Shown here one piece after another: positions 6,114 to 59,261 of a stretch of DNA of 64,000 bases. Each line of letters opens with the position of its first letter. Position 1 is the stretch's first letter. The stretch is taken from assembly GCA_001785865.1 (NCBI GenBank), contig MFUZ01000002.1, positions 22,128-86,127 on the forward strand, given 5' to 3'. The stretch is from Candidatus Nomurabacteria bacterium RIFCSPLOWO2_01_FULL_41_18 (GTDB lineage: Bacteria; Patescibacteriota; Minisyncoccia; Phycocordibacterales; UBA9973). The notes under the pieces were generated by a model. It had not been told where the DNA came from, searched no databases, and worked only from the letters and a program-made list of their open reading frames with translations. The translations under genes and the position numbers were made by a program.

Positions 6114-6165
6114 ACCTCACCCCTTCGCCCCTCTCCTTGTTAAGGAGAGGGGTTGGGGAGAGGTT
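6114..6165. repeat. family-1 nested palindromic repeat (ACCTCACCCC...CCCCTCTCCTTgttaAGGAGAGGGG...GGGGAGAGGT) between rpmI and rplT
   Basis: A perfect 11-bp stem-loop sits inside an outer inverted repeat. The same architecture recurs at 12 or more other loci. Confidence 0.8.
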
Positions 6166-6363
6166 CTATGTGAATGGTAATAAATGGCTCTTCGGCTTGT
6201 TTTTAATAATAAAATTTTTGCCTTTCTTGCCGGCAAGTTGTTTCGTGCGGGATTGTTTTGCATTGAAATGATTAAAACCTGGTTTACGTGAAAGTATCTT
6301 TCCACTTTTTGTGATTTTTAATCTCTTACTATATGATTTGTTTGTTTTCATACCTTTTCCCAT
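6166..6363 (-). CDS. rpmI: 50S ribosomal protein L35
   Basis: 65 aa, 'MGKGMKTNKSYSKRLKITKSGKILSRKPGFNHF', which is L35-like, in the infC-rpmI-rplT arrangement. Confidence 0.85.
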   Translation of the reverse strand: MGKGMKTNKSYSKRLKITKSGKILSRKPGFNHFNAKQSRTKQLAGKKGKNFIIKNKPKSHLLPFT

Positions 6364-6367
6364 ATAA

Positions 6368-6952
6368 TTACTTCTTTTCTATTGTGGTAATCAAACCTTT
6401 CGGACCTTTCTTATACGCATCGGATATCTTGTAATCTTCGGTGATTAAGTGAAGCACTCTATCCAAACGTTCTTTTAAAAATTTCTCATCCATATATTTC
6501 GCGCGTCCAGCAAGGAAAAGTTCCACTTTGACTCGATGACCTTCCTTGATCCATTTGGAAGCGGTTTTCGCTTTCAATTCCAAATCATGATCTCCCGTTC
6601 CTATCTTGATCTGAATTCCTTTGGTCTCTGTCTTGTTTGCGCCTGCTTTGGCTTTCTTCAATTTCTTACTTGCCTCATACTGATATTTTCCAAAATCCAT
6701 CAGCTTTGCCAAGGGCGGGTTGGCATTTGGGCCTATCTCTATCAAATCTAAACCCTTTCCTTGCGCGAGCTCCAGAGCGTCTTTTATACTTAAAACACCG
6801 AGATTTTTATTTTCACTGTCTAAAACCCGAAGTTCCGTCGCTCGTATTTGGTTGTTTATTCTTTCACGCAATTGATATAAATAGTGCTCACTAAGTCTTT
6901 TGATATCTTTGACTAATAAGAATATAGCGTATTGGGGGCTGAAAGTCAACAC
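6368..6952 (-). CDS. infC: translation initiation factor IF-3
   Basis: 'INNQIRATELRVLDSENKNLGVLSIKDALELAQGKGLDLIEIGPNANPPLAKLMDFGKYQYE' is the IF3 N and C domains. The true start may be non-ATG and internal. Confidence 0.85.
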   Translation of the reverse strand: MLTFSPQYAIFLLVKDIKRLSEHYLYQLRERINNQIRATELRVLDSENKNLGVLSIKDALELAQGKGLDLIEIGPNANPPLAKLMDFGKYQYEASKKLKKAKAGANKTETKGIQIKIGTGDHDLELKAKTASKWIKEGHRVKVELFLAGRAKYMDEKFLKERLDRVLHLITEDYKISDAYKKGPKGLITTIEKK

Positions 6953-6980
6953 ATTGAAATGATATTAAATTAAGCCTATA

Positions 6981-9566: not shown

Positions 9567-9616
9567 TATTCTTAGTTTCAACAAATATAATAGATGCTTT
9601 ATGTTAATATAAAGTT

Positions 9617-10066
9617 ATGGCTAATTATGCAGAAAACAGAAAAGCGAGATTTAATTATGAAATTGTGGAAAAATACGAAACGGGTATTGAGCTCTTGGGC
9701 GTGGAAGTGAAATCTGTGCGAGGAGGGCAAATGTCGCTCGAGGGAGCTTTTGTTATTGTTCGTGGAGGAGAAGTGTATTTAATTAATGCGAATATCCCGC
9801 CTTATCAAGCCAAAAATGCTCCCAAAGATTATGACCCACTTCGCAATAGAAGGCTTTTGTTAACCAAAAAAGAAATCACAGAACTTGCCGGAAATGAGAA
9901 AAACAAGAGTTTGACAATTGTGCCTATTTCAGTGTATAATAAAGGAAGAAAAATAAAAGTAGAAATTGCTTTGGTGAAAGGTAAGAAAAAGTTTGATAAA
10001 CGTAGGGCGCTTGAAAAACGTGAGACAGATCGTAGTATTAGGCGCGAAATGAAAAGAGGAGAATAA
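9617..10066 (+). CDS. smpB: SsrA-binding protein SmpB
   Basis: 'RKARFNYEIVEKYETGIELLGVEVKSVRGG...DPLRNRRLLLTKKEI' matches SmpB, and the tmRNA gene follows. Confidence 0.9.
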   Translation: MANYAENRKARFNYEIVEKYETGIELLGVEVKSVRGGQMSLEGAFVIVRGGEVYLINANIPPYQAKNAPKDYDPLRNRRLLLTKKEITELAGNEKNKSLTIVPISVYNKGRKIKVEIALVKGKKKFDKRRALEKRETDRSIRREMKRGE

Positions 10067-10085
10067 CAGATAGAACTTTGAAAAA

Positions 10086-10132
10086 CCTCACCTGCCCTAA
10101 AGGGCATCCTCTCCTGGAAGGAGAGGTTTGGT
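10086..10132. repeat. family-1 palindromic repeat (ACCTCACC..GCCCTAAAGGGC..CCTCTCCTGGAAGGAGAGG..GGTGG)
   Basis: Two adjacent stem-loops with the family-1 end motif, between smpB and ssrA. Confidence 0.7.
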
Positions 10133-10167
10133 GGATAAAAGAAATATTAATTTCTTTTACAATATTT

Positions 10168-10564
10168 GGGGATGCAAGGCATAGACAGTAGGCCTTTTGT
10201 CATCGATGCATACCGAGAATGGACGTAACCTCGTAAAACTTCGTCCAATAGCTTAATTGCAAAATTAGCTTCCAAAGTGAAAGCAGCAGTCTCTCCATAC
10301 TTCGGTATGAATGACTTTGCTTTCGCTTCAGTTTCCGCTTCGGCGTAACTGATGTCTCTCTTATAGACTTCCGATATATAAGATGAGGCACAATATTATC
10401 GGGATAAGGAAATACCCGTTCGAGTATTTCACTAAAACCTAGAACTCGATTAAAAAATATTTGGCTCGTTTAAGAATTTTTTAATTTAAACAAAAAAGCG
10501 TGCTATGTATGTAGACTTCTTTACAAAAACCTTCTGCACTGGGATTCAATTTCCCACATCTCCA
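10168..10564 (+). ncRNA. ssrA: tmRNA (transfer-messenger RNA)
   Basis: The gene lies directly downstream of smpB. The 5' GGGGATG pairs with the 3' CATCTCC followed by A, giving a 7-bp acceptor with a G3:U70 wobble that marks Ala identity. The T-arm is TGGGA-TTCAATT-TCCCA. The internal GCATACCGAG...CCTCGTAAAA block resembles E. coli tmRNA. An Ala-rich tag reading frame ends ...NDFAFASVSASA at TAA 10346-10348. Confidence 0.7.
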
Positions 10565-10626
10565 CTCGACTTATTGTAATTTTTAAACTTGACTTAGAGT
10601 TTTAAGTAGACAATAATTAATACACT

Positions 10627-10935: not shown

Positions 10936-10982
10936 AGGTAATTTTATTTGGTTTTTTATATTTTTTGTGCTAATCTATAGCA

Positions 10983-12920
10983 ATGGATTTTAATTTTTTA
11001 AATAAGAAAGACGATCAAGGTGGCGGTAGAAACAAAGGCAGAAAAGTGGGCGGATCCAACTTTAAAGGCAGTATCGCGAGCACCATATTTATCTTCATGC
11101 TGATCACAGCTATCTATTTGGCTGTCTCTCCTGAAGGAAAAGCTGTCCCGGAGATACCGATCTCGGATTTGGCCAAAAGTGTCGCTCTGGGAGAAGTAAA
11201 AAAGATCTTAGTCGAAGGGGAGAAGCTCACGATCACTTATCAAAACGACGAAATAAAAAAATCCAAGAAAGAAGTGGGTTCGGCCCTCTCGCAAACTCTC
11301 TTCAATTACGGGGTGACCAGCGAAGCGCTCGGCAAGGCGGAAATAGAGATCAAGAACGAAAGTGGATTTATGTTTGTGCTTATAAACATTCTTCCGTTCC
11401 TATTGCCGATAGTTTTTATTTTGCTTTTCTTTTGGTATCTATCAAGGCAAGTGAAAGGCGCCGGCATGCAAGCACTTTCTTTTGGTCAGTCCAAAGCACG
11501 TATCACTGACCCAAATGATAAAAATAATAGAGTTACTTTCAAAGATGTGGCCGGATGCAAGGAAGCCAAAGAAGAATTGAAAGAAATTGTGGATTTCTTG
11601 AAAAGCCCGAAAAAGTTTTTAGACATCGGCGCTAGGATCCCGAAAGGAGTGATCTTGACTGGAGCTCCGGGCACAGGCAAGACATTGCTTGCGAGAGCCG
11701 TGGCAGGGGAAGCTGGCGTGCCTTTTTTCCATTTATCTGGAAGTGAATTTGTGGAAATGTTTGTCGGCGTGGGAGCTTCACGAGTGCGAGATCTTTTCAA
11801 AATGGCCAAGAAAGCGGCGCCGGCTATTATCTTCGTGGATGAGATAGATGCGATCGGGCGAACCCGCGGAGGAGGCTTTGGTGGAGGCAACGACGAGCGC
11901 GAGCAGACTTTAAACCAAATATTGGTGGAAATGGACGGCTTTGAACCGAACGACAAAGTGATCGTGATGGCAGCGACAAATAGGCCGGACGTGCTTGATC
12001 CAGCACTCATTCGCCCCGGACGTTTTGATAGAAAAGTATTGCTGGATTTGCCTGACAGGGCTGACCGTGAAGAAATATTGAAAATTCATGCAGTAAAAAA
12101 ACCTCTCGCCGAAGATATTAATTTGAAATTAATTGCTGAACGTACCCCAGGATTTTCTGGTGCTGATTTGTATTCATTGATGAACGAAGGCGCGATACTT
12201 GCGGCACGCGAAAATAGGAAAAAAGTTTTCCAATTTGATTTAATTCGAGCTATTGAAAAAGTAATGCTCGGTCCTGAACGCAAAAGCCATTTGCTTTCTA
12301 AAAAAGAAAAAGAAATTACTGCATATCACGAAGCAGGTCATGCTCTAGTGGCTTCGGTGCTTCCTTATGCCGACCCAGTGCATAAAGTTTCTATTATTGC
12401 GCGTGGAAATGCTGGCGGATATACTTTGAAATTGCCTTTAGAAGAGCGACGTTTGCAATCCAAGAAAGAATTTATAGATGATATCGCTATGTCTCTCGGC
12501 GGATATGTGGCAGAGCAAATGATCTTTGGAGACATTACTACTGGACCGTCTAGTGATTTGCAAATGTCTACAAATTTGGCTCGGGCGATGGTCACACGCT
12601 GGGGTATGTCAGATGTAATTGGACCAATTGCGCTAGTCAGTGGGGGAGGTAGAATGCAATATGGAGAAGCTCCTGAACAAGAATATTCTGAAGCTGTTTC
12701 GACGAAAGTGGATGCTGAAGTTTCCAGAATAATAAGTGATGGATTAAAATCTGCTGAAAAAGTTCTTTCCGAACACAGAAAAGCATTTGATGCTATTGCG
12801 CACAAGCTTATAGAAGTGGAAACTTTAGAACAAGAAGAATATGAGAAGATATTAACTGCGCATGGAATAGTTCTAAAGAAGAAAGAAATTATAGCTCCGA
12901 CTGACGCTCAAGTTGCCTAA
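10983..12920 (+). CDS. ftsH: ATP-dependent zinc metalloprotease FtsH
   Basis: An N-terminal TM region, the AAA Walker A '[18 protein letters not shown]', SRH, and the zinc motif 'HEAGHAL'. Confidence 0.95.
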
Positions 12921-12927
12921 AAAATAG

Positions 12928-13410: not shown

Positions 13411-13466
13411 ACGAACTCTAAATTGCGTTTTAGCCTTATTTTGTTATAGTTATTAGGTTTACACAT

Positions 13467-13522: not shown

Positions 13523-13528
13523 AAATAA

Positions 13529-13777
13529 ATGTTTAGTATCTACATACTAAAAAGTTTAAAAAAAGGAAAAAGATATATTGGTTATACTGGCAAAACGGCT
13601 GAAAAAAGATTAATTGAACACAATTCCAATTCAAATGTTTTCACAAGACAAAATAAACCTTTTGTGTTAATCTATACCGAAGAATACCAGACCAAAGCTG
13701 AAGCAATCAAGAGAGAAAAATTTTTAAAGTCTGGGCAGGGAAGAAAGTTTTTAGATGGTAAAATATCGGGCGTGTAG
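13529..13777 (+). CDS. small stand-alone GIY-YIG nuclease domain protein
   Basis: 'FSIYILKSLKKGKRYIGYTGKTAEKRLIEHN' is a classic GIY-YIG motif. The stop codon TAG overlaps the 5' end of the downstream tRNA. Confidence 0.75.
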   Translation: MFSIYILKSLKKGKRYIGYTGKTAEKRLIEHNSNSNVFTRQNKPFVLIYTEEYQTKAEAIKREKFLKSGQGRKFLDGKISGV

Positions 13778-13840
13778 CTCAGTTGGTAGAGCGCTTAGCT
13801 TATACCTAAGTGGCCCTTGGTTCGAATCCAAGCACGCCCA
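13768..13840 (+). tRNA. tRNA, anticodon loop CTTATAC, predicted anticodon UAU (Ile, AUA-reading)
   Basis: Hand-folded cloverleaf: acceptor GGGCGTG/CACGCCC plus A; D-arm GCTC..GAGC; anticodon stem CTTAG/CTAAG; T-arm CTTGG-TTCGAAT-CCAAG. Confidence 0.7.
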
Positions 13841-13931: not shown

Positions 13932-13970
13932 CTACGTTGCAGAAAATATCTTTAATGGTATAATTAATTT

Positions 13971-14303: not shown

Positions 14304-14306
14304 TTT

Positions 14307-16457
14307 TTACTCAAAATGAAATTCTCCAGCTTTACTTTTTACTTTAGCTTTCAGCAGGGGATACTTAATTAGTTCAGGATCTTCTTCGATTAGGCGAATG
14401 GCTTCGGTGCGGGCGGCTTCTACCATTTTTATATTTTTAATTGCTTCCATGCCAAGGTCGGTGATGCCCCATTGTTTGGTGCCTCCGAGTTCGCCGGCGC
14501 CACGAAGGGTGAGGTCTAGTTCTGCCAATTCAAAACCATTTTTTGCAGTTTTTAATGCTTTTAGTCTAGCTATTGTTTTTTCACTTTTGGCTTCGGCAAA
14601 GATGTAGCAATATGCTTGATGTGTACTACGAATCACACGTCCGCGGAGCTGGTGCAGTTGTGCCAAACCAAATCTCTCTGCGCCTTCTATGATTATTACA
14701 GTCGCATTTGGGACATTCACCCCGACTTCCACCACAGAAGTAGCGCAAAGTATGTGAATTTTTCCTTCAGTGAATTCTTGCATCACTTCTTCTTTTTTCT
14801 CCTTGCTCATTTTGCTGTGCAGGACTCCAATTTCGTATTCTCGAAATATTTCTTTTTTCAAACGTTTGGCTTCTTCGACTGCAGATTTTACGTTGAGCGC
14901 TAATTCTTTTTCTGGATCAGGTTCAAAAATTCTAGGGCAAATTACATAAAGCTGTCTGCCATTTTTTAATTCTTGTCTTATTTTTTCATAAGTTTCAAGT
15001 CGTTTGTTTGGGGTAATAATTTCTGTAATTATTTGTTTTCTCCCGGCTGGCATTTCATCAAGAAGCGACAAATCCAAGTCCCCATAGATAGTCAGCGCAA
15101 GTGTGCGGGGGATGGGGGTAGCCGTCATTGAGAGTAGGTGAGGAGCAACTCCATCCTTGCGAACAAGTTTTCTTCTCTGCGCTGTGCCAAATCTGTGCTG
15201 TTCATCTATCACCACTAATGCCAAATTTTTAAATTTAACAGTTTTTTGAATCAGGGCATGGGTGCCTATTAGAATTGGAATTTGGCCGTTCGCGACCCAT
15301 TTGAGCAGTTGTGCACGAGAAATTATGGTAGCTTCTTTCGGGTTTATTTTCGATGGGAATTTTTTACAGCCCGAACCTGTGATTAGGCCAATCTGAATTC
15401 CAGTGTGAGTAAAATATTGAATGAAGGAGTAAAAATGCTGATTGGCTAAAATCTCAGTCGGTGCCATATAGGCCGTTTGCAGATTATCCTTTAGTAGGAC
15501 GTACGAAGCTGTGGCAGCCACTGCAGTTTTACCGGAGCCGACATCTCCTTCGAGCAGTCGGGACATTGGGAAATTTTTCGTCATGTCAGCTAGTATTGTT
15601 TCAATCGATTTACTTTGAGAATTTGTTGGTTTAAATGGGAAGCGTTCTAAGAAATCCTGTACGTCTTTCTTTTCTGGTCTAATTTGGAAAGATTTATTTT
15701 TTCTATATTCAAATTTATCGTGTTGGCGTTCCAACTGGATGCAAAAGACCTCTTCAAAGGCGAATCTTTTGCGAGCTGACTCGGCATCATTTTTGTTTTT
15801 TGGTTTATGTATCCAAATCAGGGCCGTTTTTAAAGTTGGCAAGCTATATTTTTTTAAAATATCAGCTGGAATATAATCTTCTAAATTATCCAAACTTTTC
15901 TCTCTCAATATTTTTTCTATAGCGTGATAAAACCATTTGGAAGTGATTCCCCGAGTTTCGGCATAAATGGGGTAAGAGAGACCCTCCCCAAGCCCCTCCC
16001 TTAGCAAGGTGGGGTTTCTAAATAAAGTATCATGCGAATCTATGGGCATGTCCAGCATCTTTTCAAATTCTGGATTGGCTAGATAAATGCCGTTTTTGCC
16101 TTGAGTCACTTTGCCGGTTAATTTTACATTCTCGCCGTCATGAAGCATCTTTGCGAGATACGCCTGATTGAACCAAGTTATTTTTATTTTTCCAGACAAA
16201 TCTTCTATTTGGCCCTCGGCCATGGGAATCTTTGAACGAAAACCTTTTTTAGTTTTCAATTTTGATATTTTTCCATAAACTGTTGCCATATCTCCGGGAA
16301 TTAAATCCACAACTCTTTTTACCTCACTGATATCGCTATAGCGAATAGGGAAGTGAAACAGCAGGTCGGATACTGAAAAAAGCTTGAGTTTATTTAAAGC
16401 TCTTTTTTGGTTTACATCTAGGCGGAATTTTATTTCCAGCTTGTCGTGAAGTTCCAT
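14307..16457 (-). CDS. recG: ATP-dependent DNA helicase RecG
   Basis: A wedge/OB N-terminal region, Walker A 'GDVGSGKTAVAA', 'VVIDEQHRFG', and helicase C motifs, about 716 aa. Confidence 0.9.
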   Translation of the reverse strand: MELHDKLEIKFRLDVNQKRALNKLKLFSVSDLLFHFPIRYSDISEVKRVVDLIPGDMATVYGKISKLKTKKGFRSKIPMAEGQIEDLSGKIKITWFNQAYLAKMLHDGENVKLTGKVTQGKNGIYLANPEFEKMLDMPIDSHDTLFRNPTLLREGLGEGLSYPIYAETRGITSKWFYHAIEKILREKSLDNLEDYIPADILKKYSLPTLKTALIWIHKPKNKNDAESARKRFAFEEVFCIQLERQHDKFEYRKNKSFQIRPEKKDVQDFLERFPFKPTNSQSKSIETILADMTKNFPMSRLLEGDVGSGKTAVAATASYVLLKDNLQTAYMAPTEILANQHFYSFIQYFTHTGIQIGLITGSGCKKFPSKINPKEATIISRAQLLKWVANGQIPILIGTHALIQKTVKFKNLALVVIDEQHRFGTAQRRKLVRKDGVAPHLLSMTATPIPRTLALTIYGDLDLSLLDEMPAGRKQIITEIITPNKRLETYEKIRQELKNGRQLYVICPRIFEPDPEKELALNVKSAVEEAKRLKKEIFREYEIGVLHSKMSKEKKEEVMQEFTEGKIHILCATSVVEVGVNVPNATVIIIEGAERFGLAQLHQLRGRVIRSTHQAYCYIFAEAKSEKTIARLKALKTAKNGFELAELDLTLRGAGELGGTKQWGITDLGMEAIKNIKMVEAARTEAIRLIEEDPELIKYPLLKAKVKSKAGEFHFE
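15980..16008 (-). repeat. partial family-1 repeat embedded in-frame in recG
   Basis: The reverse complement 'CTTGCTAAGGGAGGGGCTTGGGGAGGGTC' matches the 3' half of the 6114 element (CTTGTTAAGGAGAGGGGTTGGGGAGAGGT). It encodes 'REGLGEGLS'. Confidence 0.5.
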
Positions 16458-17390: not shown

Positions 17391-17477
17391 GGATGAGTGA
17401 CCGAGTGGCTTAAGGTAGCGGTTTACTAAACCGCCGTCCCCTTAAAAGGACCGTGAGTTCGAATCTCACCTCATCCG
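17391..17477 (+). tRNA. class II (long variable arm) tRNA with apparent anticodon ACU (Ser-like; needs software confirmation)
   Basis: Acceptor GGATGAG/CTCATCC plus G. The fold parallels tRNA-Ser. The anticodon arm is GCGGT-TTACTAA-ACCGC and the T-arm is GTGAG-TTCGAAT-CTCAC. Confidence 0.6.
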
Positions 17478-28396: not shown

Positions 28397-28401
28397 AATT
28401 T

Positions 28402-28486
28402 CCCCCTCCTTAATAAGGAGGGGAACAAGGGGAGGTTCTTAAAGAATTTACCTCTCCCCAGCCCTCTCCTTGTAAAGGAGAGGGGG
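28402..28486. repeat. two tandem family-1 palindromic units (CCCCCTCCTTAATAAGGAGGGG; CCCTCTCCTTGTAAAGGAGAGGG)
   Basis: Perfect stem-loops in the pilB-to-response-regulator spacer. Confidence 0.8.
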
Positions 28487-31226: not shown

Positions 31227-31312
31227 CACCACCCCGTAGCCCCTCCTCAATAAGGAGGGGAGGAATCCCTCTCCTCCTTTGGAAGGAGGAGTGCCCGAAG
31301 GGCGAGGTGGTG
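31227..31312. repeat. family-1 nested palindrome (CACCACC...CCCCTCCTCAATAAGGAGGGG...CTCCTCCTTTGGAAGGAGGAG...GCCCGAAGGGC...GGTGGTG)
   Basis: An outer 7-bp inverted repeat encloses three inner hairpins, immediately after the pilC stop. Confidence 0.8.
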
Positions 31313-31902: not shown

Positions 31903-32733
31903 ATGTTTTCATTGTTAACGGTTATCTTTTTTGCTCTCGGCCTCATCATCGGCAGTTTTTTAAATGTGGTAATTTTACGGCTGAACACAAAGAAAACACT
32001 CGGCGGGAGGAGTGCTTGCATGGTGTGTCAGAGAGAGCTCCGTTGGTACGAGCTCATTCCTGTTTTCAGTTTTTTTACCCTACAGGGCAGATGTCGCACT
32101 TGCAAAACCAAGATCTCCATTCAGTATCCGCTGGTAGAGCTCACCTCTGGGATCATTTTCGCGCTCATATTTTTAAAGTTTTCCACATTGAGCGGGTTCG
32201 TATCCCAGGCAAACGATTGGTATGTTTGGTTTAGTCCGGAGTTCTTGATCCCTTTTTTATTCTATGCAACTGCTTTTTCTATCCTGCTTGTCATCGCAGT
32301 CTACGACTTGCGTCACAAAATAATTCCTGACTTACTAGCATTCATTTTCGGAGTGCTCGCTTTTATCGGTCTTTTCTTATTTTCTAGTTATAATTTATAT
32401 TTGCATGTTCCTTCCGTTTGGGAATTTTTAGCTGGACCGTTCATTGCCCTGCCTTTTGCTTTTTTTTGGCTCGTATCCCGTGGCAGGTGGATGGGTCTGG
32501 GAGATGCCAAGCTCGGGCTCGGTATCGGCTGGCTACTTGGCCTCACGGGTGCGCTTTCGGGCCTGGTGATCGCTTTTTGGGTGGGGGCCATAGTCGGAGT
32601 TGCCCTCATTATTATTTCCAAAAGCAGACGAAAAGGCAGAATGGGGATGAAAAGCGAAATTCCATTTGCTCCGTTTTTGGTCCTGGGAACATTCCTCGCA
32701 TTTATGTGCGGGTTTAACTTTTTTGGATTATGA
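31903..32733 (+). CDS. pilD: prepilin peptidase PilD (A24 family)
   Basis: The N-terminal tetracysteine 'CMVCQREL...CRTCKTKI' and a polytopic A24 core. Confidence 0.85.
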   Translation: MFSLLTVIFFALGLIIGSFLNVVILRLNTKKTLGGRSACMVCQRELRWYELIPVFSFFTLQGRCRTCKTKISIQYPLVELTSGIIFALIFLKFSTLSGFVSQANDWYVWFSPEFLIPFLFYATAFSILLVIAVYDLRHKIIPDLLAFIFGVLAFIGLFLFSSYNLYLHVPSVWEFLAGPFIALPFAFFWLVSRGRWMGLGDAKLGLGIGWLLGLTGALSGLVIAFWVGAIVGVALIIISKSRRKGRMGMKSEIPFAPFLVLGTFLAFMCGFNFFGL

Positions 32734-33440
32734 AAAAATTATTTAAAATAGAAAAGAATAAGAGACTTGCCCGCTGTCAGGCGGGGATGACCCATTCGAT
32801 TAACTCAGGCCTTCGCTCTGAGACTCAGGCTCGAAGAGGTCATCCCGAGTATTCCCGAGGGATGACCTATGTGGAGCTCATCGTCGTCTTGAGTATTTTT
32901 GCAGTGATGTCTACAATTGTGATGTTCAGCTACAACAAATTTCAGGCGAAAGTGGACGTCAAGAATCTAGCGAGCGATATTGCTTTGAAAATTATCGAGG
33001 CGCAAAAGTCCGCGGTAAATGGTGTTTTGCCTTTCGGCTACACTCCCGACGTCGATCCTTGGAAGCCGTCTTATGGGATTTATTTTAATAAATCTTTAAA
33101 TCCGGATCCAGATAATAACAATACTCCCTTCAATGAAGAATTTACTTATTTTGCTGATTTAGATCAAGGTGGCGATTTAGATAATCTTGAGGTCTTAAAT
33201 TTTACTAAAATTATAAAAGGCGATACCATATCTAGTATAGAAGAATGTGATAGTGGTGGTTGTAGCTCAATTGGGGGGGATGATTTAACTATTATTTTTA
33301 CTAGACCAGATTCCAGTGCAGTTTTTTCCAGTGGCACAAGTGGTTCAGATTATATTCAAATCACTGTAGAATCCCATAGGTCGTCTGATATTAAAGCAAA
33401 AATCAAGATTTATCCTTCTGGCAGGGTGCAAATAGATTAG
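32730..33440 (+). CDS. pilin-like protein with an unusually long (about 45-aa) leader containing a repeat-element insertion
   Basis: The prepilin motif 'RG|MTYVELIVVLSIFAVM' is preceded by 'MKKLFKIEKNKRLARCQAGMTHSINSGLRSETQARRGHPEYS', and that leader is encoded by a palindromic repeat. Confidence 0.6.
   Translation: MKKLFKIEKNKRLARCQAGMTHSINSGLRSETQARRGHPEYSRGMTYVELIVVLSIFAVMSTIVMFSYNKFQAKVDVKNLASDIALKIIEAQKSAVNGVLPFGYTPDVDPWKPSYGIYFNKSLNPDPDNNNTPFNEEFTYFADLDQGGDLDNLEVLNFTKIIKGDTISSIEECDSGGCSSIGGDDLTIIFTRPDSSAVFSSGTSGSDYIQITVESHRSSDIKAKIKIYPSGRVQID
32770..32867. repeat. palindromic MITE-like element (GGGATGACC...CTCAGGCCTTCGCTCTGAGACTCAGGCTCGAAGAGG...GGTCATCCC) inside the pilin-like leader
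   Basis: Nested inverted repeats. It shares the CAGGCTCGAAGAGGT module with the ligA insertion at 35800. Confidence 0.6.
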
Positions 33441-35240: not shown

Positions 35241-37412
<2,172 letters not shown>

Positions 37413-37425: not shown

Positions 37426-37515
37426 GGAGGCGTCGGATAGTGGTTTATTCCACCACCTTGGAAAGGTGGCAGGCTCGAAAGGGTCTCGTGAGTTCAAATC
37501 TCACCGCCTCCGCCA
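37426..37515 (+). tRNA. tRNA-Ser (GGA), CCA encoded
   Basis: Acceptor GGAGGCG/CGCCTCC plus G plus CCA, anticodon arm CCACC-TTGGAAA-GGTGG, a long variable arm and T-arm GTGAG-TTCAAAT-CTCAC. Confidence 0.85.
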
Positions 37516-38379
37516 ATGAAAAATATTTTCAAAAAAATATTACTGCTAAATAAAAAAGAAGGAGAAACCCCGCTAGAAGCTCTAGAGAATTTTCGCAGAA
37601 AGAAAAGCAAGAAAAATAAAAAATATAAAGATGTGAAGATGACTTATGCTGGACGTCTAGACCCCATGGCGAGTGGACTTTTACTTGTGTTAGCAGGCGG
37701 AGAAACAAAAAATAAAGAAAAATATTTAGCTTTAGAAAAAGAGTATGAATTCAGTGTGCTTTTTGGTTTTGCGACAGATACATATGATATTTTAGGAAGA
37801 GCACAATATTCCAACATTCTAAAGAACATTAGAACGATAAGATCAAAAAGTGAGTTAGAAAAAAAGATAAAAGAGAATTTGAAATCTTTTGTCGGTAAAT
37901 TTAAACAAAAATACCCGATGTATTCATCAAAAACAGTTCATGGTAAGCCACTTTTTACCTATGCGAGAGCGGGAAAGGCGGTAGAAAGTCCAGAGCATGA
38001 GGTGAATGTAAAGAGTTTGAAGTTTCTTAAAATAAGTAAAATAAATAATACAAAACTTTTAGCTAATATTGAAAAAAGAATAAAAAAAGTAAAAGGGGAC
38101 TTTCGACAGAAAGAAATCTTAAAAATTTGGCGGAGATATCTCAAGGCAAATCAGATAAAAAATTCCTCCGCTTTCCTCCACGCTACGCGTGGACCCTTCC
38201 GCGTTCAGAATTCTTTATCTGATTTGCCTGTATTTTTCATTGCTGATTTTTACATCAAATGTGGTAGTGGGACTTATGTGAGAAGTATCGCTAACGACTT
38301 AGGAAGAAAGATTAAAATCCCAGCACTTGCCCTCTCTATCAAAAGAACAAAAATTGGCAAGTGGAGGCAAGTGGAGTAG
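37516..38379 (+). CDS. truB: tRNA pseudouridine(55) synthase TruB (with in-frame family-2 insertion)
   Basis: 'AGRLDPMASGLLLVLAGGETK' is the catalytic Asp motif. The gene starts directly after the tRNA CCA. Confidence 0.8.
   Translation: MKNIFKKILLLNKKEGETPLEALENFRRKKSKKNKKYKDVKMTYAGRLDPMASGLLLVLAGGETKNKEKYLALEKEYEFSVLFGFATDTYDILGRAQYSNILKNIRTIRSKSELEKKIKENLKSFVGKFKQKYPMYSSKTVHGKPLFTYARAGKAVESPEHEVNVKSLKFLKISKINNTKLLANIEKRIKKVKGDFRQKEILKIWRRYLKANQIKNSSAFLHATRGPFRVQNSLSDLPVFFIADFYIKCGSGTYVRSIANDLGRKIKIPALALSIKRTKIGKWRQVE
38156..38217. repeat. family-2 palindromic element in-frame in truB (encodes KNSSAFLHATRGPFRVQNS)
   Basis: GAATTCCTCCGC...TTCCTCCACGCTACGCGTGGACCCTTCCGCGTTCAGAATTC. Confidence 0.75.
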
Positions 38380-43558: not shown

Positions 43559-44344
43559 ATGAAAAAAGAAACAAAAAAGGCTACAGAACATCCACTTTCT
43601 ATATTGGCGAATCAGGCTTATGAAGCTTTTGCGGAGATGGGTTTTGAAATTGGAACCGGGCCGGAACTTGAAAGTGACTGGTATAATTTTTATGTCTTGA
43701 ATTTTCCAAAGGATCACCCAGCACTTGATATGCAGGACACTTTTTGGATCAAAGACCCGAAGAAGCTTGTTGAAAATTCTTCCGCATTCCTCCAACCTTC
43801 GGTCGGAACCTTCCGCGGAGAGAATTCTCAACAAGCTTCTTCTCTCGTACTTCGAACGCACACCACAACTGTCACAGCTCGTGAACTTGAAAAGGCTGGC
43901 AAAGAGGGCAGACTGCCCGCTGCTTTTATTTCTGTGGGTAAGGTTTTCCGAAATGAGGCAACTGACATCACTCACGAAATGCAATTTTTTCAGATAGATG
44001 GAGCGATGGTAGGCGAAAATATTTCTCTTGCTGATTTGAAAGGAGTACTCACGAATTTTTACAAAAAAATGCTTGGAGAAAATACCGAAATAGAATTTAG
44101 GCCAAGTTTTTTTCCTTTTACCGAACCATCCATTGAAGTTTTCGCTAAATTTAATGGCAAGTGGCTGGAAATGATGGGTGCAGGAATGCTTCATCCGAAT
44201 GTTTTGCGTAACATTGGTCTTGACCCATCGAAAGTCCAAGGTTTTGCTTTTGGCGGAGGGCTGGACCGTATTGCGATGATCAAATGGAATATTCCCGATG
44301 TGCGTTTGTTTTATCAAGGAGATCTAAGGCTCAATCAGTTTTAA
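43559..44344 (+). CDS. pheS: phenylalanine--tRNA ligase alpha subunit (short form, with in-frame family-2 insertion)
   Basis: 'DTFWI...LRTHTT', and class II motifs 'FISVGKVFRNEATDITHEMQFFQIDG' and 'GFAFGGGLDRIAM'. Confidence 0.9.
   Translation: MKKETKKATEHPLSILANQAYEAFAEMGFEIGTGPELESDWYNFYVLNFPKDHPALDMQDTFWIKDPKKLVENSSAFLQPSVGTFRGENSQQASSLVLRTHTTTVTARELEKAGKEGRLPAAFISVGKVFRNEATDITHEMQFFQIDGAMVGENISLADLKGVLTNFYKKMLGENTEIEFRPSFFPFTEPSIEVFAKFNGKWLEMMGAGMLHPNVLRNIGLDPSKVQGFAFGGGLDRIAMIKWNIPDVRLFYQGDLRLNQF
43756..43845. repeat. family-2 palindromic element, extended about 90-bp form with 27-nt terminal inverted repeats, in-frame in pheS (encodes PKKLVENSSAFLQPSVGTFRGENSQQASSLV)
   Basis: GAAGAAGCTTGTTGAAAATTCTTCCGC...GCGGAGAGAATTCTCAACAAGCTTCTTC. 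It lies between conserved DTFWI and LRTHT blocks, where other PheS proteins have about 5 aa. Confidence 0.8.
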
Positions 44345-44350: not shown

Positions 44351-46198
44351 ATGAAAATTTCTTACAATTGGCTTAAATGGTATATACCGGAAGCTCCTAC
44401 AGCAGAGAAACTTGTAGATATTTTCAATTATCATCTTTGTGAAGTTGAAACTTTAACTCCCATCCTTGGGGAGGAGGGGGTAGGGGGTGGTGATTATGTT
44501 TTGGATTTAAAAATTTTACCAAATCGCGCGCATGATTTACTTTCGCATCAAGGCCTTGCTCGCGAGCTTGCATCGCTTCTAAATATTCCATATGTTGACC
44601 CGACCCCGAAATACAAAATTCCCACCTCCGCTAAAGCTACGGCGGGCAAGCCTGAATTGAAAATTTATGTGAAAACATCTCTTTGCCGGAGATATATGGG
44701 AAGAATTGTGAGAAATATAAAGGTGGGACCATCACCACAATGGGTGGTCGATCACTTAGAATCAATAGGGCAGAGAAGCATAAATAATATGGTGGATGCT
44801 GCGAATATTGTTATGTATGACTGTGGTCAGCCAACTCACGTTTTTGATTTGGACAAAGTGAAAAATGAAATAATCATTCGTGATGCCAAAGATGGGGAGG
44901 ATTTGACTACACTTGATAATAAAGCAGTAAAATTAAAAAACTCAAATGTAGTAATTGCTGATTCTAAAAATGCTCTGGCTATCGCCGGCATAAAGGGCGG
45001 GAAAATTGCCGAGGTAGGCAATAATACGAAAAATATAATTCTTGAGGTTGCCAACTTTGATCCTACATCTGTTCGAAAGACAGCTCAAGCCTTAAATATT
45101 TTTACTGATGCGAGAAAGCGATTTGAAAATGATTTATCTCCAGAATTAGCGTCTTATGCAATGTTGGAGCTTTCTGCACTTATTTTTGAAATGTGCCCGG
45201 AGGCTGTTTTTGAGGATGTTGTAGATGTTTACCCGAACTCTCAAGAGGGCGGGTTTATCCGAAAACTTTCTTTTTCAACTGATAGAATTTCAAAGATTTT
45301 AGGTTTAAAGGTTTCCGATAAAGAGATAGAAGATATTTTAAAAAGGTACGTAATTAATTACGTAATTAAAGAAAACAAGTTTGAAATTACTATTCCTCCT
45401 ATGCGCCTAGATCTAGTGATAGAAGAAGATATGGCAGAAGAGATAGGCAGGATTTTGGGATACGATAAAGTAAAAGGGAATATTCCTAAAATAAACTTCA
45501 AACCAAAACAGAATGAAACTTATTCAAAGATAACTTCTGCGAGAAATAAATTGCTTGCGGATGGGTATAGCGAGGTTATGACCTATTCTTTTTGTGATAA
45601 GGGAGAGATTGAAGTGCAAAACAGCGCTTCTGATAAAAAGTTTTTGCGGACGAATCTAACTGACGGACTGAAAGAAAGCATAAAATTAAACCGCTTAAAT
45701 GCTCCGTTTTTAGGAATTGAACAGGTCAAGGTTTTTGAAATTGGAACTATGTTCAAGAAAAGTGGGGAAGAAATGCATGTGGCGTATGGAGATAAAAAAG
45801 GGATTAAAGAAGAAAAATTAGAAGAATTTAGCGAAAAGCTGGAGAAAAATTCTTTGACTTTCCTCCAGCCTTCGGCCGGAACCTTCCGTCCGAAAAATTC
45901 TTCTCCAGCTTTTCGCATGTGGTCACTTTTTCCTTTTATTGCGCGAGACATTGCTGTGTTTGTTCCTGAAAATGTAAAAAGTTCTAAAGTATTAAAAATT
46001 ATTAAAGACAATGCAGGGGATATGGTGGTAAGAGGTCCGGAGCTTTTTGATGAATTCAAAAAGGAAGGCAAAGTTTCCTATGCGTTTAGAATAGTTTTTC
46101 AATCTTATGACCGCACCCTGACAGACGGAGAGGTGAATGAAATCATGAATAAAATAACTGACAAAATTAAAGCAAATAATGGTTGGCAGGCGAGATAA
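44351..46198 (+). CDS. pheT: phenylalanine--tRNA ligase beta subunit (short form, with repeat insertions)
   Basis: N-terminal 'MKISYNWLKWYIP', a B3/B4 domain, and a C-terminal FDX-ACB-like region. Confidence 0.85.
   Translation: MKISYNWLKWYIPEAPTAEKLVDIFNYHLCEVETLTPILGEEGVGGGDYVLDLKILPNRAHDLLSHQGLARELASLLNIPYVDPTPKYKIPTSAKATAGKPELKIYVKTSLCRRYMGRIVRNIKVGPSPQWVVDHLESIGQRSINNMVDAANIVMYDCGQPTHVFDLDKVKNEIIIRDAKDGEDLTTLDNKAVKLKNSNVVIADSKNALAIAGIKGGKIAEVGNNTKNIILEVANFDPTSVRKTAQALNIFTDARKRFENDLSPELASYAMLELSALIFEMCPEAVFEDVVDVYPNSQEGGFIRKLSFSTDRISKILGLKVSDKEIEDILKRYVINYVIKENKFEITIPPMRLDLVIEEDMAEEIGRILGYDKVKGNIPKINFKPKQNETYSKITSARNKLLADGYSEVMTYSFCDKGEIEVQNSASDKKFLRTNLTDGLKESIKLNRLNAPFLGIEQVKVFEIGTMFKKSGEEMHVAYGDKKGIKEEKLEEFSEKLEKNSLTFLQPSAGTFRPKNSSPAFRMWSLFPFIARDIAVFVPENVKSSKVLKIIKDNAGDMVVRGPELFDEFKKEGKVSYAFRIVFQSYDRTLTDGEVNEIMNKITDKIKANNGWQAR
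44460..44492. repeat. degenerate family-1 fragment in-frame in pheT (encodes LGEEGVGGG)
   Basis: The reverse complement CACCACCCCCTACCCCCTCCTCCCCAAGGATGGG aligns to the 31227 element CACCACCCCGTAGCCCCTCCTCAATAAGGAGGGG. Confidence 0.5.
45347..45368. repeat. TACGTAATTAATTACGTA palindrome inside pheT (encodes RYVINYVIK)
   Basis: A perfect 18-nt palindrome related to the intergenic 28-nt palindrome at 17301. Confidence 0.55.
45842..45905. repeat. family-2 palindromic element in-frame in pheT (encodes KNSLTFLQPSAGTFRPKNSS)
   Basis: GAGAAAAATTCTTTGAC TTTCCTCCAGCCTTCGGCCGGAACCTTCC GTCCGAAAAATTCTTCTC. Confidence 0.8.
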
Positions 46199-48397
<2,199 letters not shown>

Positions 48398-50530: not shown

Positions 50531-50606
50531 AACCCCTCCTAGCCTCCCCTTGTCAGGGGAGGGAAAATTCAGCAAGTCCCCCTTGATAAGAGGGATTAGG
50601 GGGTTG
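50531..50606. repeat. family-1 palindromic repeat (CCTCCCCTTGTCAGGGGAGG etc.) in thrS/rpmF divergent spacer
   Basis: CT/GA-rich stem-loops of the same type. Confidence 0.65.
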
Positions 50607-51885: not shown

Positions 51886-51889
51886 CTTT

Positions 51890-52585: not shown

Positions 52586-52592
52586 ATAAATT

Positions 52593-54740: not shown

Positions 54741-54743
54741 AGG

Positions 54744-54786
54744 AACCCCCTCCCAACCTCCCCCTTGTTAAGGGGGAGGGGAAAAC
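54744..54786. repeat. family-1 palindromic repeat (CCTCCCCCTTGTTAAGGGGGAGG)
   Basis: A perfect 9-bp stem with a GTTA loop directly after the smc stop. Confidence 0.75.
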
Positions 54787-54811
54787 ATAGTTTTTCACCC
54801 TAAAACTGCCT

Positions 54812-54846
54812 AATCCCATCAAAATCGAGCTGATTTTGATGGGATT
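54812..54846. terminator. bidirectional terminator hairpin (15-bp stem AATCCCATCAAAATC/GATTTTGATGGGATT)
   Basis: A perfect long stem between convergent smc and dacA-capA. Confidence 0.6.
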
Positions 54847-54863
54847 GGTGGATTTATGTATAT

Positions 54864-56789: not shown

Positions 56790-58816
56790 AATAAAATATA
56801 ATCTATTGTTTTTCGTTCCAAATCAACCCCTTTTACTTTTATTTTGACTTTATCTCCTAATTTATATTTCTTTTTTCTCTTTTGTCCGACCAATTCCAAT
56901 TTTTTCTCATTGAAAATATAAAAGTCGTCTTTCATATCTCTCACTCGCACCAAGCCTTCGCATTTTGTTTCTGTTTCTTCCACATAGATGCCCCATTCTG
57001 TGATTCCACTTATTACTCCTTCAAAACTTTCACCTGTGCGTTTTGACATATATTCCACCTGTTTGTATTTTATAGAAGCTCGTTCAGCATCTGATGCACG
57101 TTTTTCCTGTTCGGAAGAAATTCGCGCAGTCTTTTCATATTCTAACAAATGTTCTTTACTTACTTTTTTCCCAGACAAATAATCAGTGAGAAGTCTGTGT
57201 ACTATTATATCTGGATACCGCCTAATAGGAGAAGTGAAATGTGTATAATATTCAAATGCCAGACCATAATGCCCGATGTTCTTTGTGGAATAAATCGCTT
57301 TCGCCATTGACCTGATGACTGCTCTATTTACTGTTCCTTCTTCATTTTTACCCTCTAATTTTTTTAGAAGTTTATTTATTTCATGACTTGAAATAATTCC
57401 GTTTACCAAAGATATTTTATGTCCTAAACTTCGCAAAAAATATGCGAGGTCTGCCATTTTTTCTTTACTTGGAAGATCATGAATGCGATAAAGAGAAAGA
57501 TTTTTGGAAAGTATTTCAGCAACTTTTTTGTTTGCCAAAAGCATGAATTCTTCAACTAGTCTATTTGAATCACCGCGTTCTTTGGTGATGACTTTTATCG
57601 GCACTCCCGTAGGGTCTAAAACAAATTTTACTTCTTCTTGCTCGAGCGATATGGCACCATTTTTAAATCTTTCAGTGGTTAAGAGTTTTGCTAAATTATT
57701 TAAAATTGCTAATTCTTTGTGTAGGGGATCGCCAGTCTTTTTGATTGCCTCGCCCGTGGCCGGTCTATGGCCGAGGGATTCTTCTGCCTCTTCATAAGTA
57801 AATCTTTTCTGCGAATGTATTACTGTGCGTCCGTACCACTCGCTTTTTACTTTTGCATTTTTATCAATAACAAAAACTGCGCTCATGGTGAGTCTGTCTT
57901 TATTTGGCACCAGGCTACACAAATCATTTGAAAGTTCTTCTGGAAGCATGGGTATGGTTCTGTCTACTAGGTATACCGAAGTTCCACGCTCACGTGCCTC
58001 CTTATCAAGAGCACTACCCACCTTTACATAGTGCGAAACGTCGGCGATGTGGATGCCTATTTCGAAAACCTCATCCCCCGCCTTCCCCTGGAAAGGGGAA
58101 GGGGCTTTCCCCCTCTCCTCTCCAGGAGAGGGTTGGGGTGAGGTTATTCTCCTAAAAGAAATCGCATCATCAAAGTCTTTTGCATCTGCTGGATCAATGG
58201 TAAAGGTTAAAATTTTTCTAAAATCACGGCGTCCCGCATAATCACTTTCTTTTATGCCACCCTTTTTTATTTCTTCTGCTTCTCTGTATACTTTTTCTGG
58301 TAATTTTGAATCAAACCCTTTTTCTATTGCGATGGCGTGCATTTCCGCGTCATTATCTCCAGGTGTGCCTAAAATTTTAGTTACTTTTCCTTCTGGAGCT
58401 TTGCGAGGGTCCGTCCAAGAGACTATTTCTGCAAAAACTTTCTGTCCAGCTTTGGCCCCGTTCAACATATTTTCAGGAATTAAAATATCCGTATACATTT
58501 TCGTATCGTCAGGTTTTAAGAAGAACATGCTACCTTGTAATTCCAAAACTCCAGCAAAACCAATTTTTGCCCGAGAAATTATTTTTGATACTTCTGCTGT
58601 CTGCCTATTTTTTCCTTTTGGATGCAGAACAATCTCTACAGTGTCTCCATGCAGTGCAGTATTGAGGTGTTTTGAATCAATTTCTGGATCCTGATTATTA
58701 TTTTTTCCCTGCCTACCGGCAGGCAGGTCGCCAACAGCTACATATCCTGTTCCTTTTGAAGTAATGGATATAATACCCTCTAATCTGTTGCTGGGGTTAT
58801 TTTTTGAGTTTTTCAC
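56786..58816 (-). CDS. rnr: ribonuclease R (RNB family 3'-5' exoribonuclease with C-terminal S1 domain), carrying an in-frame repeat insertion
   Basis: Cold-shock-like N-terminus, an RNB domain with 'DDAISF...GIHIADVSHYV', and a C-terminal S1 domain 'GVISGITEWGIYVE'. Confidence 0.9.
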   Translation of the reverse strand: MKNSKNNPSNRLEGIISITSKGTGYVAVGDLPAGRQGKNNNQDPEIDSKHLNTALHGDTVEIVLHPKGKNRQTAEVSKIISRAKIGFAGVLELQGSMFFLKPDDTKMYTDILIPENMLNGAKAGQKVFAEIVSWTDPRKAPEGKVTKILGTPGDNDAEMHAIAIEKGFDSKLPEKVYREAEEIKKGGIKESDYAGRRDFRKILTFTIDPADAKDFDDAISFRRITSPQPSPGEERGKAPSPFQGKAGDEVFEIGIHIADVSHYVKVGSALDKEARERGTSVYLVDRTIPMLPEELSNDLCSLVPNKDRLTMSAVFVIDKNAKVKSEWYGRTVIHSQKRFTYEEAEESLGHRPATGEAIKKTGDPLHKELAILNNLAKLLTTERFKNGAISLEQEEVKFVLDPTGVPIKVITKERGDSNRLVEEFMLLANKKVAEILSKNLSLYRIHDLPSKEKMADLAYFLRSLGHKISLVNGIISSHEINKLLKKLEGKNEEGTVNRAVIRSMAKAIYSTKNIGHYGLAFEYYTHFTSPIRRYPDIIVHRLLTDYLSGKKVSKEHLLEYEKTARISSEQEKRASDAERASIKYKQVEYMSKRTGESFEGVISGITEWGIYVEETETKCEGLVRVRDMKDDFYIFNEKKLELVGQKRKKKYKLGDKVKIKVKGVDLERKTIDYILL
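58068..58145. repeat. family-1 nested palindrome inserted in-frame in rnr next to the RNB catalytic Asp motif (encodes RRITSPQPSPGEERGKAPSPFQGKAGDE)
   Basis: AACCTCATCCCC...CCTTCCCCTGGAAAGGGGAAGG...CCCTCTCCTCTCCAGGAGAGGG...GGGGTGAGGTT. Confidence 0.8.
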
Positions 58817-58881
58817 CTAGTTAATATAGCATAAAAATTGAAATACATTGCCTTTTTTGTAATTTATGTTAAGCTGAGACC

Positions 58882-59202
58882 ATGTTAAAAATAAGATTAC
58901 AGAGAATAGGAAGAAAGAACGATCCGGCTTTTCGCGTGGTTTTGACTGATTCTAAAAACAGCACCAAGAGCGGAAGATTTTTGGAAATACTCGGCACTTA
59001 CAATCCAAAGGTTTTAGACAAGAAACTTAGAGTAAGTTTTGCCGATGACAGGATAAAACACTGGCTTTCTAAGGGAGCGAAGCTTTCTGATACTATGCAC
59101 AACTTTTTGGTGCAAAATAAAGTAATAGAAGGTAAAAAAGTGAATGTTTTACCAAAGAAAAAGCCAACAGTCGCAAGGAAAGAATTAAAAGCAAAGAAAT
59201 AA
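58882..59202 (+). CDS. rpsP: 30S ribosomal protein S16
   Basis: 'MLKIRLQRIGRKNDPAFRVVLTDSKNSTKSGRFLEILGTYNP'. Confidence 0.9.
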   Translation: MLKIRLQRIGRKNDPAFRVVLTDSKNSTKSGRFLEILGTYNPKVLDKKLRVSFADDRIKHWLSKGAKLSDTMHNFLVQNKVIEGKKVNVLPKKKPTVARKELKAKK

Positions 59203-59204
59203 TT

Positions 59205-59261
59205 CACCTCACCCGGCCATTGGCCACCCTCTCCTGTCAGGAGAGGGGCTGGGGGTGAGGT
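59205..59261. repeat. family-1 nested palindrome (CACCTCACCC..GGCCATTGGCC..CCCTCTCCTGTCAGGAGAGGG..GGGGGTGAGGT) after rpsP
   Basis: The outer 10-bp inverted repeat encloses two perfect inner palindromes. It probably acts as a terminator. Confidence 0.8.

Follow-up and report, generated by a model that had tools for sequence, protein, structure and literature searches.

The window analysed here is a 64,000-nt stretch of the genome of Candidatus Nomurabacteria bacterium RIFCSPLOWO2_01_FULL_41_18 (contig MFUZ01000002.1, positions 22,128 to 86,127), a groundwater bacterium of the candidate phyla radiation (CPR, or Patescibacteria), and codes for housekeeping genes together with a type IV pilus or DNA-uptake-like cluster. 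Scattered through it, both between and within genes, are short palindromic repeats that appear to belong to the intrastrand triplex motifs (TM), in their G/C-rich class II form, an assignment that is well supported. Each unit has a polypyrimidine arm, a short loop and the complementary polypurine arm, followed by another purine-rich arm in mirror orientation, and as single-stranded DNA it should be able to fold back twice. Taken together, the likely explanation is that the window carries a new unit of this published class; that the unit behaves as a selfish or neutral structure-forming repeat, and not as a terminator, is the reading we prefer, though more tentatively.

An initial annotation, made from the sequence alone, had proposed a family of nested GA/CT-rich stem-loops in this DNA, and the family is real. 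A scan of the whole window for perfect stems of at least 7 with loops of 3-8 includes 12 G/C-rich hairpins at 9 loci in which the 5' arm is pure pyrimidine and the 3' arm pure purine (stems 8-11, loops 3-5; starts at 6128, 10108, 28403, 28462, 31240, 31271, 35754, 50543, 54757, 58081, 58111 and 59227). With a classifier set at G+C of at least 0.6, 11 such hairpins are counted in the window and 0 in 30 dinucleotide-preserving shuffles. The same classifier finds no purine-arm-first hairpin in the window; the pyrimidine-first orientation is uninformative, because such a palindrome reads pyrimidine-first on either strand. Beyond the 9 loci, two degenerate copies (in recG and pheT) and one remnant (in ligA) can be recognized. 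Twelve hairpins in 64 kb agree with the density of about one per 5 kb given at the outset, and the coordinates and sequences annotated then are correct save for site 32770. That site, taken for a copy in a pilin leader, is not a member of the family: its hairpin is of mixed sequence, and the 16-nt TCAGGCTCGAAGAGGT is all it has in common with a piece nested in the ligA copy.

The class is recognized by its third arm. In 9 of the 12 hairpins, a third purine-rich arm 0-6 nt away mirrors the purine arm at all positions or all but one (T is allowed opposite A, with up to 1 mismatch); at 58081, 8/9 positions are mirror-compatible. This arm is found on one strand only, except at 6128, where it is compatible at 11/11 positions on both strands. 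In the remaining 3 hairpins it lies past a small extra hairpin or a nested insert. An example of the unit is CCCCTCTCC-ttgttaa-GGAGAGGGG-tt-GGGGAGAGG, and a unit sequence without an extra hairpin is CCCCTCTCCTTGTTAAGGAGAGGGGTTGGGGAGAGG; linkers vary among copies (TTCG, CAG, GTAG, CTAG, AA), and unit length here is 35-85 nt. At no more than 1 mismatch, GGGGTGAGGT is found at 10 sites in the window against 1.5 expected, 9 of them at family loci. Double units, that is, inverted pairs, are present at 6114, 58068 and 59205. Apparent inverted ends are seen at 5 loci, and half-units with a single 'end' are common. Folded as RNA, the copies at 6114, 10086, 31227, 58068 and 59205 form outer stems around one to three inner hairpins, matching the nesting first described, and the stems of the family are very stable (-17 to -59 kcal/mol). 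The outer inverted repeat described at the same time (ACCTCACCCC / GGGGTGAGGT) is indeed present, but a third arm on each strand, with the hairpin in common, explains it better than transposon ends do.

Holder et al. (2015, PMC4666352) describe exactly this layout under the name of G/C-rich class II intrastrand triplex motif, an element formerly named BoxC and then called the PIT element by Hoyne and Maher (2000 and 2002; PMC4666352). The idea that the repeats could form triplexes, raised in the initial annotation, thus agrees with a published class in which the third arm mirrors the purine arm. The Escherichia coli copies (TM_ECO; e.g. CCCTCTCCCTGTGGGAGAGGGCCGGGGTGAGGGC) have the same arrangement (Table 1, PMC4666352), and a single strand of TM_ECO oligonucleotides folds into a stable triplex in vitro (PMC4666352). 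Shared features include a C-rich arm of ~9 nt, a 3-7-nt loop, a complementary G-rich arm and, past a linker of 2-5 nt, a mirrored G-rich arm with TGA/AGA; dispersed copies well above chance, frequent inverted pairs and no link to transposase genes; and loci that vary between close strains. No link of the E. coli motif to mobile elements was detected, its loci are more rearranged between strains than control loci, and triplex motifs of the G/C-rich kind abound in cyanobacteria (PMC4666352), which are also rich in copies of the unit described here. The window repeats differ in the sequence and register of their arms (CCCCTCTCC / GGAGAGGGG / GGGGTGAGG), in their host, a CPR bacterium with a small genome, in the 4-5 of ~12 loci that are in frame in essential genes (in E. 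coli, every copy is intergenic), and in the many composite copies, to which small hairpins or nested inserts are added.

The family is neither local to the window nor specific to the lineage, since it is found across distant phyla and in viral contigs; this settles in favour of dispersal the question whether the copies had arisen by local duplication. A search with CCCTCTCCT-N3-5-AGGAGAGGG, using one genome per species, gives at least 120 loci in other genomes, and viral contigs contain at least another 120. Among the matches listed, GGG[ATG]GAGG is present within 45 nt in 123/137 genome hits and within 8 nt in 86/137, and the third arm is present in 106/135 viral hits. The genome hits listed include Cyanobacteria (38), Chloroflexi (23), CPR lineages (18), Bacteroidota (12), Ignavibacteria (10) and Armatimonadota (8), and there are others in Proteobacteria, Nitrospirota, Melainabacteria, Verrucomicrobia and one contig of a metagenome bin labelled Bathyarchaeia. 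One IMG/VR contig (L131, 7283 nt, with terminase, portal, head and neck genes) has five nearly identical triplex motifs with the AACCTCACCCCC arm always on the same side, two of them inside the terminase and minor-head open reading frames (ORFs). Even an accessory hairpin module of the 31227 copy, GTGCCCGAAGGGCG, recurs in cyanobacterial copies, and the composite unit is thus common to very distant phyla and to phages. Occurrence in CPR bacteria appears to be undescribed in the literature searched, and a search for literature on CPR or Patescibacteria with palindromic or in-frame repeats found nothing specific.

The copies that the initial annotation placed in frame in ligA, rnr, recG and pheT are borne out, and all four reading frames run straight through them. 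The copy at ligA site 2 encodes 24 residues, the rnr copy 'ITSPQPSPGEERGKAPSPFQGKAGDEV' (26-27 residues) and the recG copy 'NPTLLREGLGEGL', while PheT is 6 aa longer than its orthologues in the related contigs L001 and L003 at the degenerate copy; peptides of the insert type include ITSPQPSPGEER and SLTRRGVGR. The arms seldom create stop codons and are translated to Pro/Leu/Ser plus Gly/Glu/Arg/Lys. Of the 6 frames of an element, 1-5 are open (mean ~3.5), and the rough expectation for a random 50-nt sequence is ~2 open frames of 6. They are not stop-free in all frames: the third arm has TGA in one frame, and loops often have TAA or TAG. Such a composition would help the repeats to survive.

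In ligA and rnr, the motif loops are insertions relative to solved structures, and alignments of homologues indicate that both are insertion hot spots across Nomurabacteria. The HMMER match of LigA to Enterococcus faecalis LigA splits exactly at the insert, with residues 166/167 of 4lh6 adjacent. Site 1 of LigA is basal in about half of 120 homologues, holds the full motif in at least 17 (e.g. PPSPLQGEGQGGEVN) and a remnant (xGGEVN) in 9; at site 2, 45 of 108 homologues are basal and 63 have diverse inserts (21 of SLTRRG..GEV type, 42 others). For RNase R, the insert in the window corresponds to a 22-residue gap in Bacillus subtilis RNase R (8cdu). A basal 7-residue loop between DDAISF and YEIGIHIADV is found in 59 of 120 RNase R homologues, and the other 61 have very diverse loop inserts, many of them of the motif type (ILPPLLNKERGLGGEV); the window version is unique among the 120. 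In a crude test on the matches listed from the genome search, 9/18 CPR hits are inside ORFs of at least 150 codons, versus 5/38 in cyanobacteria, and the CPR host proteins as identified with Pfam include Dus, MurG, UvrC, FemAB, LigA, an M1 peptidase and others. CPR copies would be translated inside essential genes at recurrent hot spots, a residence that appears undescribed in the literature searched. Such units add low-complexity segments to CPR proteins and may confuse annotation and alignment.

Coding copies might instead have been selected as Pro/Gly-rich protein linkers, their likeness to the intergenic hairpins being due to chance. The peptides are flexible and of low complexity, and in an AlphaFold model of LigA the insert is a low-confidence coil between confident strands (pLDDT ~32, residues 181-190); this hints, weakly because the model is mediocre (mean pLDDT 59), at a disordered insert. 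However, identical nucleotide palindromes with perfect stems are present in non-coding DNA, third codon positions are 95% conserved inside the element but 50% outside it, and about half of the homologues have no insert at all. The linker reading is close to refuted, and we give it hardly any credence. The elements are dispersed and non-coding in origin.

Short palindromes in frame in genes are not without parallel. Rickettsia palindromic elements are reportedly found in frame in the housekeeping genes of a reduced genome and translated, and are said to be 100-150 nt long, A/T-rich and Rickettsia-specific. They resemble the window repeats as short palindromes in surface loops of housekeeping proteins with no known transposase; unlike them, they have no pyrimidine/purine arms and no mirror third arm, and the window units are 35-85 nt and common to phyla and phages. 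The likeness is one of behaviour only, since length and composition clearly differ. Two elements of the present description are therefore already known: the class has been published, and Rickettsia offers a case of palindromic repeats in frame.

Outside genes, 6 of 7 loci are 1-20 nt past a stop codon (rpmI, smpB, pilB, pilC, smc and rpsP), as had been noted at the outset, and the seventh (50532) is between the divergent genes thrS and rpmF. Such proximity is unavoidable and is no evidence of function, because the spacers minus their repeats are only 20-40 nt long, as in relatives. The initial annotation had suggested that these copies may act as terminators; more broadly, they could be functional RNA hairpins (terminators or attenuators, 3'-end stabilizers, or structures that sequester AGGAGG), with the coding copies as by-products. 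The position past stop codons, the very stable stems and the purine arms, which when read from the sequence look like Shine-Dalgarno sequences, all fit this possibility. However, there is no T-tract behind the hairpins in the inspected flanks, and a terminator scan of 45-64 kb flags only the secondary hairpin at 50579-50603. Some copies are within operons (infC-rpmI-rplT and the pilus cluster), both orientations are found, and the intergenic copies of the window are absent from the syntenic spacers of four relatives (L001, L003, L124 and L126). At gathering thresholds, Rfam matches no family to the repeats, its only matches in the window being a transfer-messenger RNA (tmRNA) and three tRNAs. 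In E. coli, PIT elements reportedly had neither promoter nor terminator activity (Hoyne & Maher 2002, cited in PMC4666352). We reject an intrinsic terminator on the lack of T-tracts, the operon context, the lack of positional conservation and these E. coli data as cited, and regard RNA function in the broader sense as very unlikely. The tmRNA gene (10168-10567) directly follows smpB and the 10085 composite, and the tRNA genes are at 13768-13840, 17391-17477 and 37426-37512.

Comparisons between genomes catch the repeats in different states. At ligA site 2, the copy contains an unrelated nested insert of ~34 nt (~35783-35816); copy and nested insert together are 98% identical between the window and the relative L124 (third positions 0.95), against 72% over the whole gene (third positions 0.50). 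Thus, the copy is conserved at the DNA level or was recently exchanged. At site 1, both L124 and L125 have the full unit, of which the window keeps CAGGGGGGTGAGGT only, with the hairpin exactly absent. Two pairs show filled and empty alleles: in ligA of L001 versus L003, 37 nt replaces 34 nt, with the pyrimidine arm overlying native Pro-Leu-x-Leu codons, and in rnr of L253 versus L254, 45 nt replaces 21 nt. The clean 'empty site' that the initial annotation had proposed to look for is therefore not seen; in motif-free alleles, the place of the motif is taken by a native loop. None of the window copies is bordered by consistent direct repeats, as target-site duplications would be.

The closest comparison is with L247, a contig from another sample that matches the window at 100% identity along flanks of 1440 nt and 1493 nt. 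In its rnr loop, a different 42-nt motif takes the place of the 83-nt composite of the window, and all 18 mismatches between the two are within 88 nt just upstream of the rnr motif. The replaced patch, ~130-170 nt long, ends at the motif 3' end (L247 1495-1624 versus window 58064-58236) and has the appearance of a short-patch recombination event in which the donor was diverged and the tract stopped at the motif. The intergenic 59205 copy is identical in the two. Five further contigs of the same population hold no polymorphism, being 99.99-100% identical to the window; L247 alone differs. The strain swap in rnr, together with the ligA copy (98% identity, against third positions of ~50% in its flanks), fits the early suggestion of recent activity or structural selection. 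On neighbour-joining trees, insert states require 43 changes at LigA site 1, 40 at LigA site 2 and 29 in RNase R, versus 44.5, 47.9 and 40.1 with shuffled labels. Such near-random states would hint at high turnover, if weakly, because neighbour-joining trees of ~75%-identical sequences are poorly resolved. Base-resolved examples of replacement appear to be undescribed in the literature searched.

These comparisons also bear on whether the repeats are moved by an enzyme. No transposase, integrase or reverse transcriptase is present in the 64-kb window. Miniature inverted-repeat transposable elements, too, are small, non-coding and dispersed, and 5 window loci have apparent terminal inverted repeats; in the window, however, half-units are common, no parent insertion sequence is seen and the sequence is conserved across phyla. 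We reject this identity on the lack of target-site duplications and of a window transposase, and because filled alleles replace native sequence. REP/REPIN elements, which are recognized by their RAYT, share with the repeats a short G/C-rich palindrome that is often paired in inverted orientation, the absence of target duplication and the nesting into mosaics. The window copies differ in not being only extragenic and in their strictly pyrimidine/purine stems with a mirror arm; no RAYT gene is found in the 64-kb window, GTAG is present only at 31236 and in L001, and there is no conserved GTAG/CGTC at the end of the palindrome.

A related proposal is that the repeats, as non-autonomous elements, depend on a single-strand-DNA tyrosine transposase (Y1/HUH, IS200/RAYT-like) that another part of the genome encodes and that acts on them in trans, recognizing the hairpin and the adjacent conserved arm. 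A hairpin with a conserved flanking arm, no target duplication and a structure formed only in single strands would suit the HUH mechanism, and the five near-identical copies in 7.3 kb of the phage contig look like a burst. Moreover, L001 and L003 encode a 224-aa Y1_Tnp protein (PF01797, 29.1 bits versus a cut-off of 23) flanked by hairpins. However, those hairpins are of a different kind (ACAGAGCCTTAGACTCTGT, unmatched in the window), the protein has no homologue in the window, and L001 and L003 carry the gene yet have 1 and 0 motifs in 22 kb, within the 0-1 copies per 22 kb of syntenic relatives. The conserved GTAG/CGTC tag is lacking, motif alleles substitute native sequence instead of adding to it, and no link to mobile elements is known for the E. 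coli motif (PMC4666352). The hairpin unmatched and the homologue missing in the 64-kb window lead us to reject the REP/REPIN-RAYT identity, and we consider mobilization in trans unlikely. The Y1_Tnp gene (L001 1275-2000, L003 ~1760-2480) is between pilB and a pilin gene, with ACAGAGCCTTAGACTCTGT flanking it in inverted orientation and occurring once inside it, a layout that resembles RAYT with REPs. The corresponding spacer of the window has two triplex motifs, and the gene is absent.

Another way to account for the variable loci is adaptive instability (Holder et al. 2015), in which the motifs would be kept as fragile or recombination-prone sites that benefit the host by generating variation, including in surface loops. 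One end of the replaced rnr patch coincides with the motif, homologues vary strongly in these very loops, rearrangement is more frequent at E. coli TM loci than at controls (PMC4666352), and the window codes for the type IV pilus or DNA-uptake-like cluster. However, the patch comes from a single strain pair, hypervariability of tolerant loops is expected of any insertion under weak selection, nothing indicates that variation in the LigA and RNase R loops is useful, and other repeat families occupy the same loops. We find this reading, too, very improbable, marginally more so than an RNA function.

Returning to the favoured explanation of a selfish or neutral structure-forming repeat, the copies would be found after stop codons and in tolerant loops because they are harmless there and the genome is nearly without spacer DNA. 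In a more specific form, which we put forward tentatively as possible but short of probable, such selfish or neutral repeats may turn over via replication- or repair-linked events rather than cut-and-paste transposition, the candidate events being short-patch replacement anchored in similar flanks, exact hairpin loss and the nesting of further hairpins. More speculative, and in our estimate rather improbable, is the extension of this scheme to a transposase-free, self-propagating element of prokaryotes and phages at large. Folded as a single strand, the unit would block replication or cause breaks; repair, with a second copy or DNA taken up by the cell as template, would then write it at any site flanked by short pyrimidine-rich and GGTG/GAGG-like similarity. 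In CPR bacteria, which have hardly any intergenic space, the element would continually rewrite surface loops of essential enzymes such as LigA, RNase R, RecG, PheT, Dus, MurG and UvrC.

Several points weigh against the class assignment and the explanation built on it. The TM_ECO consensus, CCCTCNCCC N3-6 GGGNGAGGG N3 GGGNGAGGG, has 0 matches in the window, where the arms are in a different register; because the exact consensus is unmatched, we place the window copies in the wider G/C-rich TM class and not in the E. coli subfamily. In E. coli, the triplex signal is absent in duplex DNA and in vivo, and the K-12 copies are strictly intergenic (PMC4666352). A triplex is hard to expect of the composites in which a 12-14-nt hairpin separates the purine arm from the third arm. 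For the spreading mechanism, the basis is two filled/empty pairs (80-90% identity) and one strain pair, the search for a mobilizing enzyme covered the 64-kb window, and the near-random tree states may partly reflect poorly resolved trees.

Although BoxC/PIT/TM repeats have been known for ~30 years, to our knowledge neither a function nor a spreading mechanism has been established for them. The strain and genome comparisons give dated, base-resolved cases of replacement, hairpin loss and nesting, natural experiments that could make the question of the spreading mechanism testable. The repeats also appear to break assemblies: L252, a contig from an independent assembly of the same population, starts at window position 31232, inside the 31227 composite. 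The individual copies are listed in Table 1.

Table 1. Copies of the triplex motif repeat in the window, with their component parts
Feature	Span	Strand	Location	Parts
Palindromic double triplex motif	6114-6164	.	between rpmI stop (6166) and rplT start (6100)	third arm ACCTCACCCC 6114-6123; hairpin CCCCTCTCCTTgttAAGGAGAGGGG 6128-6152; third arm GGGGAGAGGT 6155-6164
Composite	10085-10134	.	smpB / tmRNA gene spacer	outer stem CCTCACC/GGTGG; small hairpin GCCCTAAAGGGC 10094-10105; pyrimidine/purine hairpin 10108-10126
Degenerate in-frame motif	15981-16014	-	recG coding strand	ACCCTCCCC / CCCCTCCCTTagcAAGGTGGGG, one stem mismatch
Single motif	28401-28437	+	6 nt past pilB stop	hairpin 28403-28423; third arm GGGGAGGTT 28429-28437
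Single motif, inverted orientation	28450-28484	-		third arm ACCTCTCCCC 28450-28459; hairpin 28462-28484
Composite	31227-31312	.	2 nt past pilC stop	outer arms CACCACCCC / GAGGTGGTG; hairpins 31240-31260 and 31271-31291, small hairpin GCCCGAAGGGC 31294-31304 (positions counted by hand)
Remnant	35598-35611	+	ligA site 1	linker and third arm CAGGGGGGTGAGGT ('QGGEV') kept, hairpin gone
In-frame motif	35754-35824	+	ligA site 2	hairpin 35754-35778; third arm GAGGTGAGGT 35815-35824
Degenerate in-frame copy	44457-44492	+	pheT	encodes 'TPILGEEGVGGG'
Composite	50532-50603	.	between divergent thrS and rpmF	third arm ACCCCTCCT; hairpin 50543-50562; second hairpin ~50579-50603
Single motif	54744-54781	-	4 nt past smc stop	third arm AACCCCCTCCC 54744-54754; hairpin 54757-54779
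In-frame composite	58068-58145	.	rnr (gene on - strand)	outer arms AACCTCATCCCC / GGGGTGAGGTT; hairpins 58081-58102 and 58111-58132
Composite	59205-59261	.	3 nt past rpsP stop	outer arms CACCTCACCC / GGGGGTGAGGT; small hairpin GGCCATTGGCC; hairpin 59227-59247

Other repeats share the window with the triplex motifs. A second family is found at 36585-36672 (ligA), 38144-38229 (truB), 43759-43842 (pheS) and 45831-45916 (pheT). Its copies have a common centre of ~40 nt (TTCCTCCAGCCTTCGGCYGGAACCTTCC; 3 hits, 0 in shuffles) and 22-24-nt arms that differ per locus, each repeating the adjacent coding sequence in inverted form almost perfectly (91-100%); the copies are in frame and translated (e.g. as a 15-residue peptide). 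Judging from these arms, an insertion seems to copy its flank in inverted orientation, and we know of no element that does so. Where the zinc-finger loop of ligA has an element of this second family in the window, L124 has a pair of triplex motifs (11357-11439), and a permissive loop can thus be occupied by different repeat families.

Yet another small module, the third, reads ...TCAGGCTCTGAGA..TCAGGCTCGAAGAGGT and is found at 32784-32846 and at 35783-35819, the latter nested in the ligA triplex motif. The former site is the N-terminal region of ORF 32730-33440 and is the one listed earlier as the pilin leader copy. One of the two module peptides has 10 residues, and the other is SGLRSETQARRG.

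At the start of gyrB (46207-46282), an inverted repeat with 22-nt arms (ACCCCGTAGTAGATTTTGCCAA / TTGGCAAAATTCACTACGGGGT) surrounds an unrelated 32-nt centre and overlaps a strong promoter-like match (TTGGCA-18-TATAAT, 11 of 12). ORF 61098-61703 encodes a PaaX central (Cas2-like) domain and ORF 12-704 has a weak TraG-D_C match, neither with an evident link to the repeats. Finally, at ligA site 1, L001 has a locus-specific perfect palindrome (10309-10331, ACTTGGCGGTttaACCGCCAAGT) where L003 has a native non-palindromic sequence of nearly the same length, which suggests that native sequence may turn into a palindrome in these genomes.

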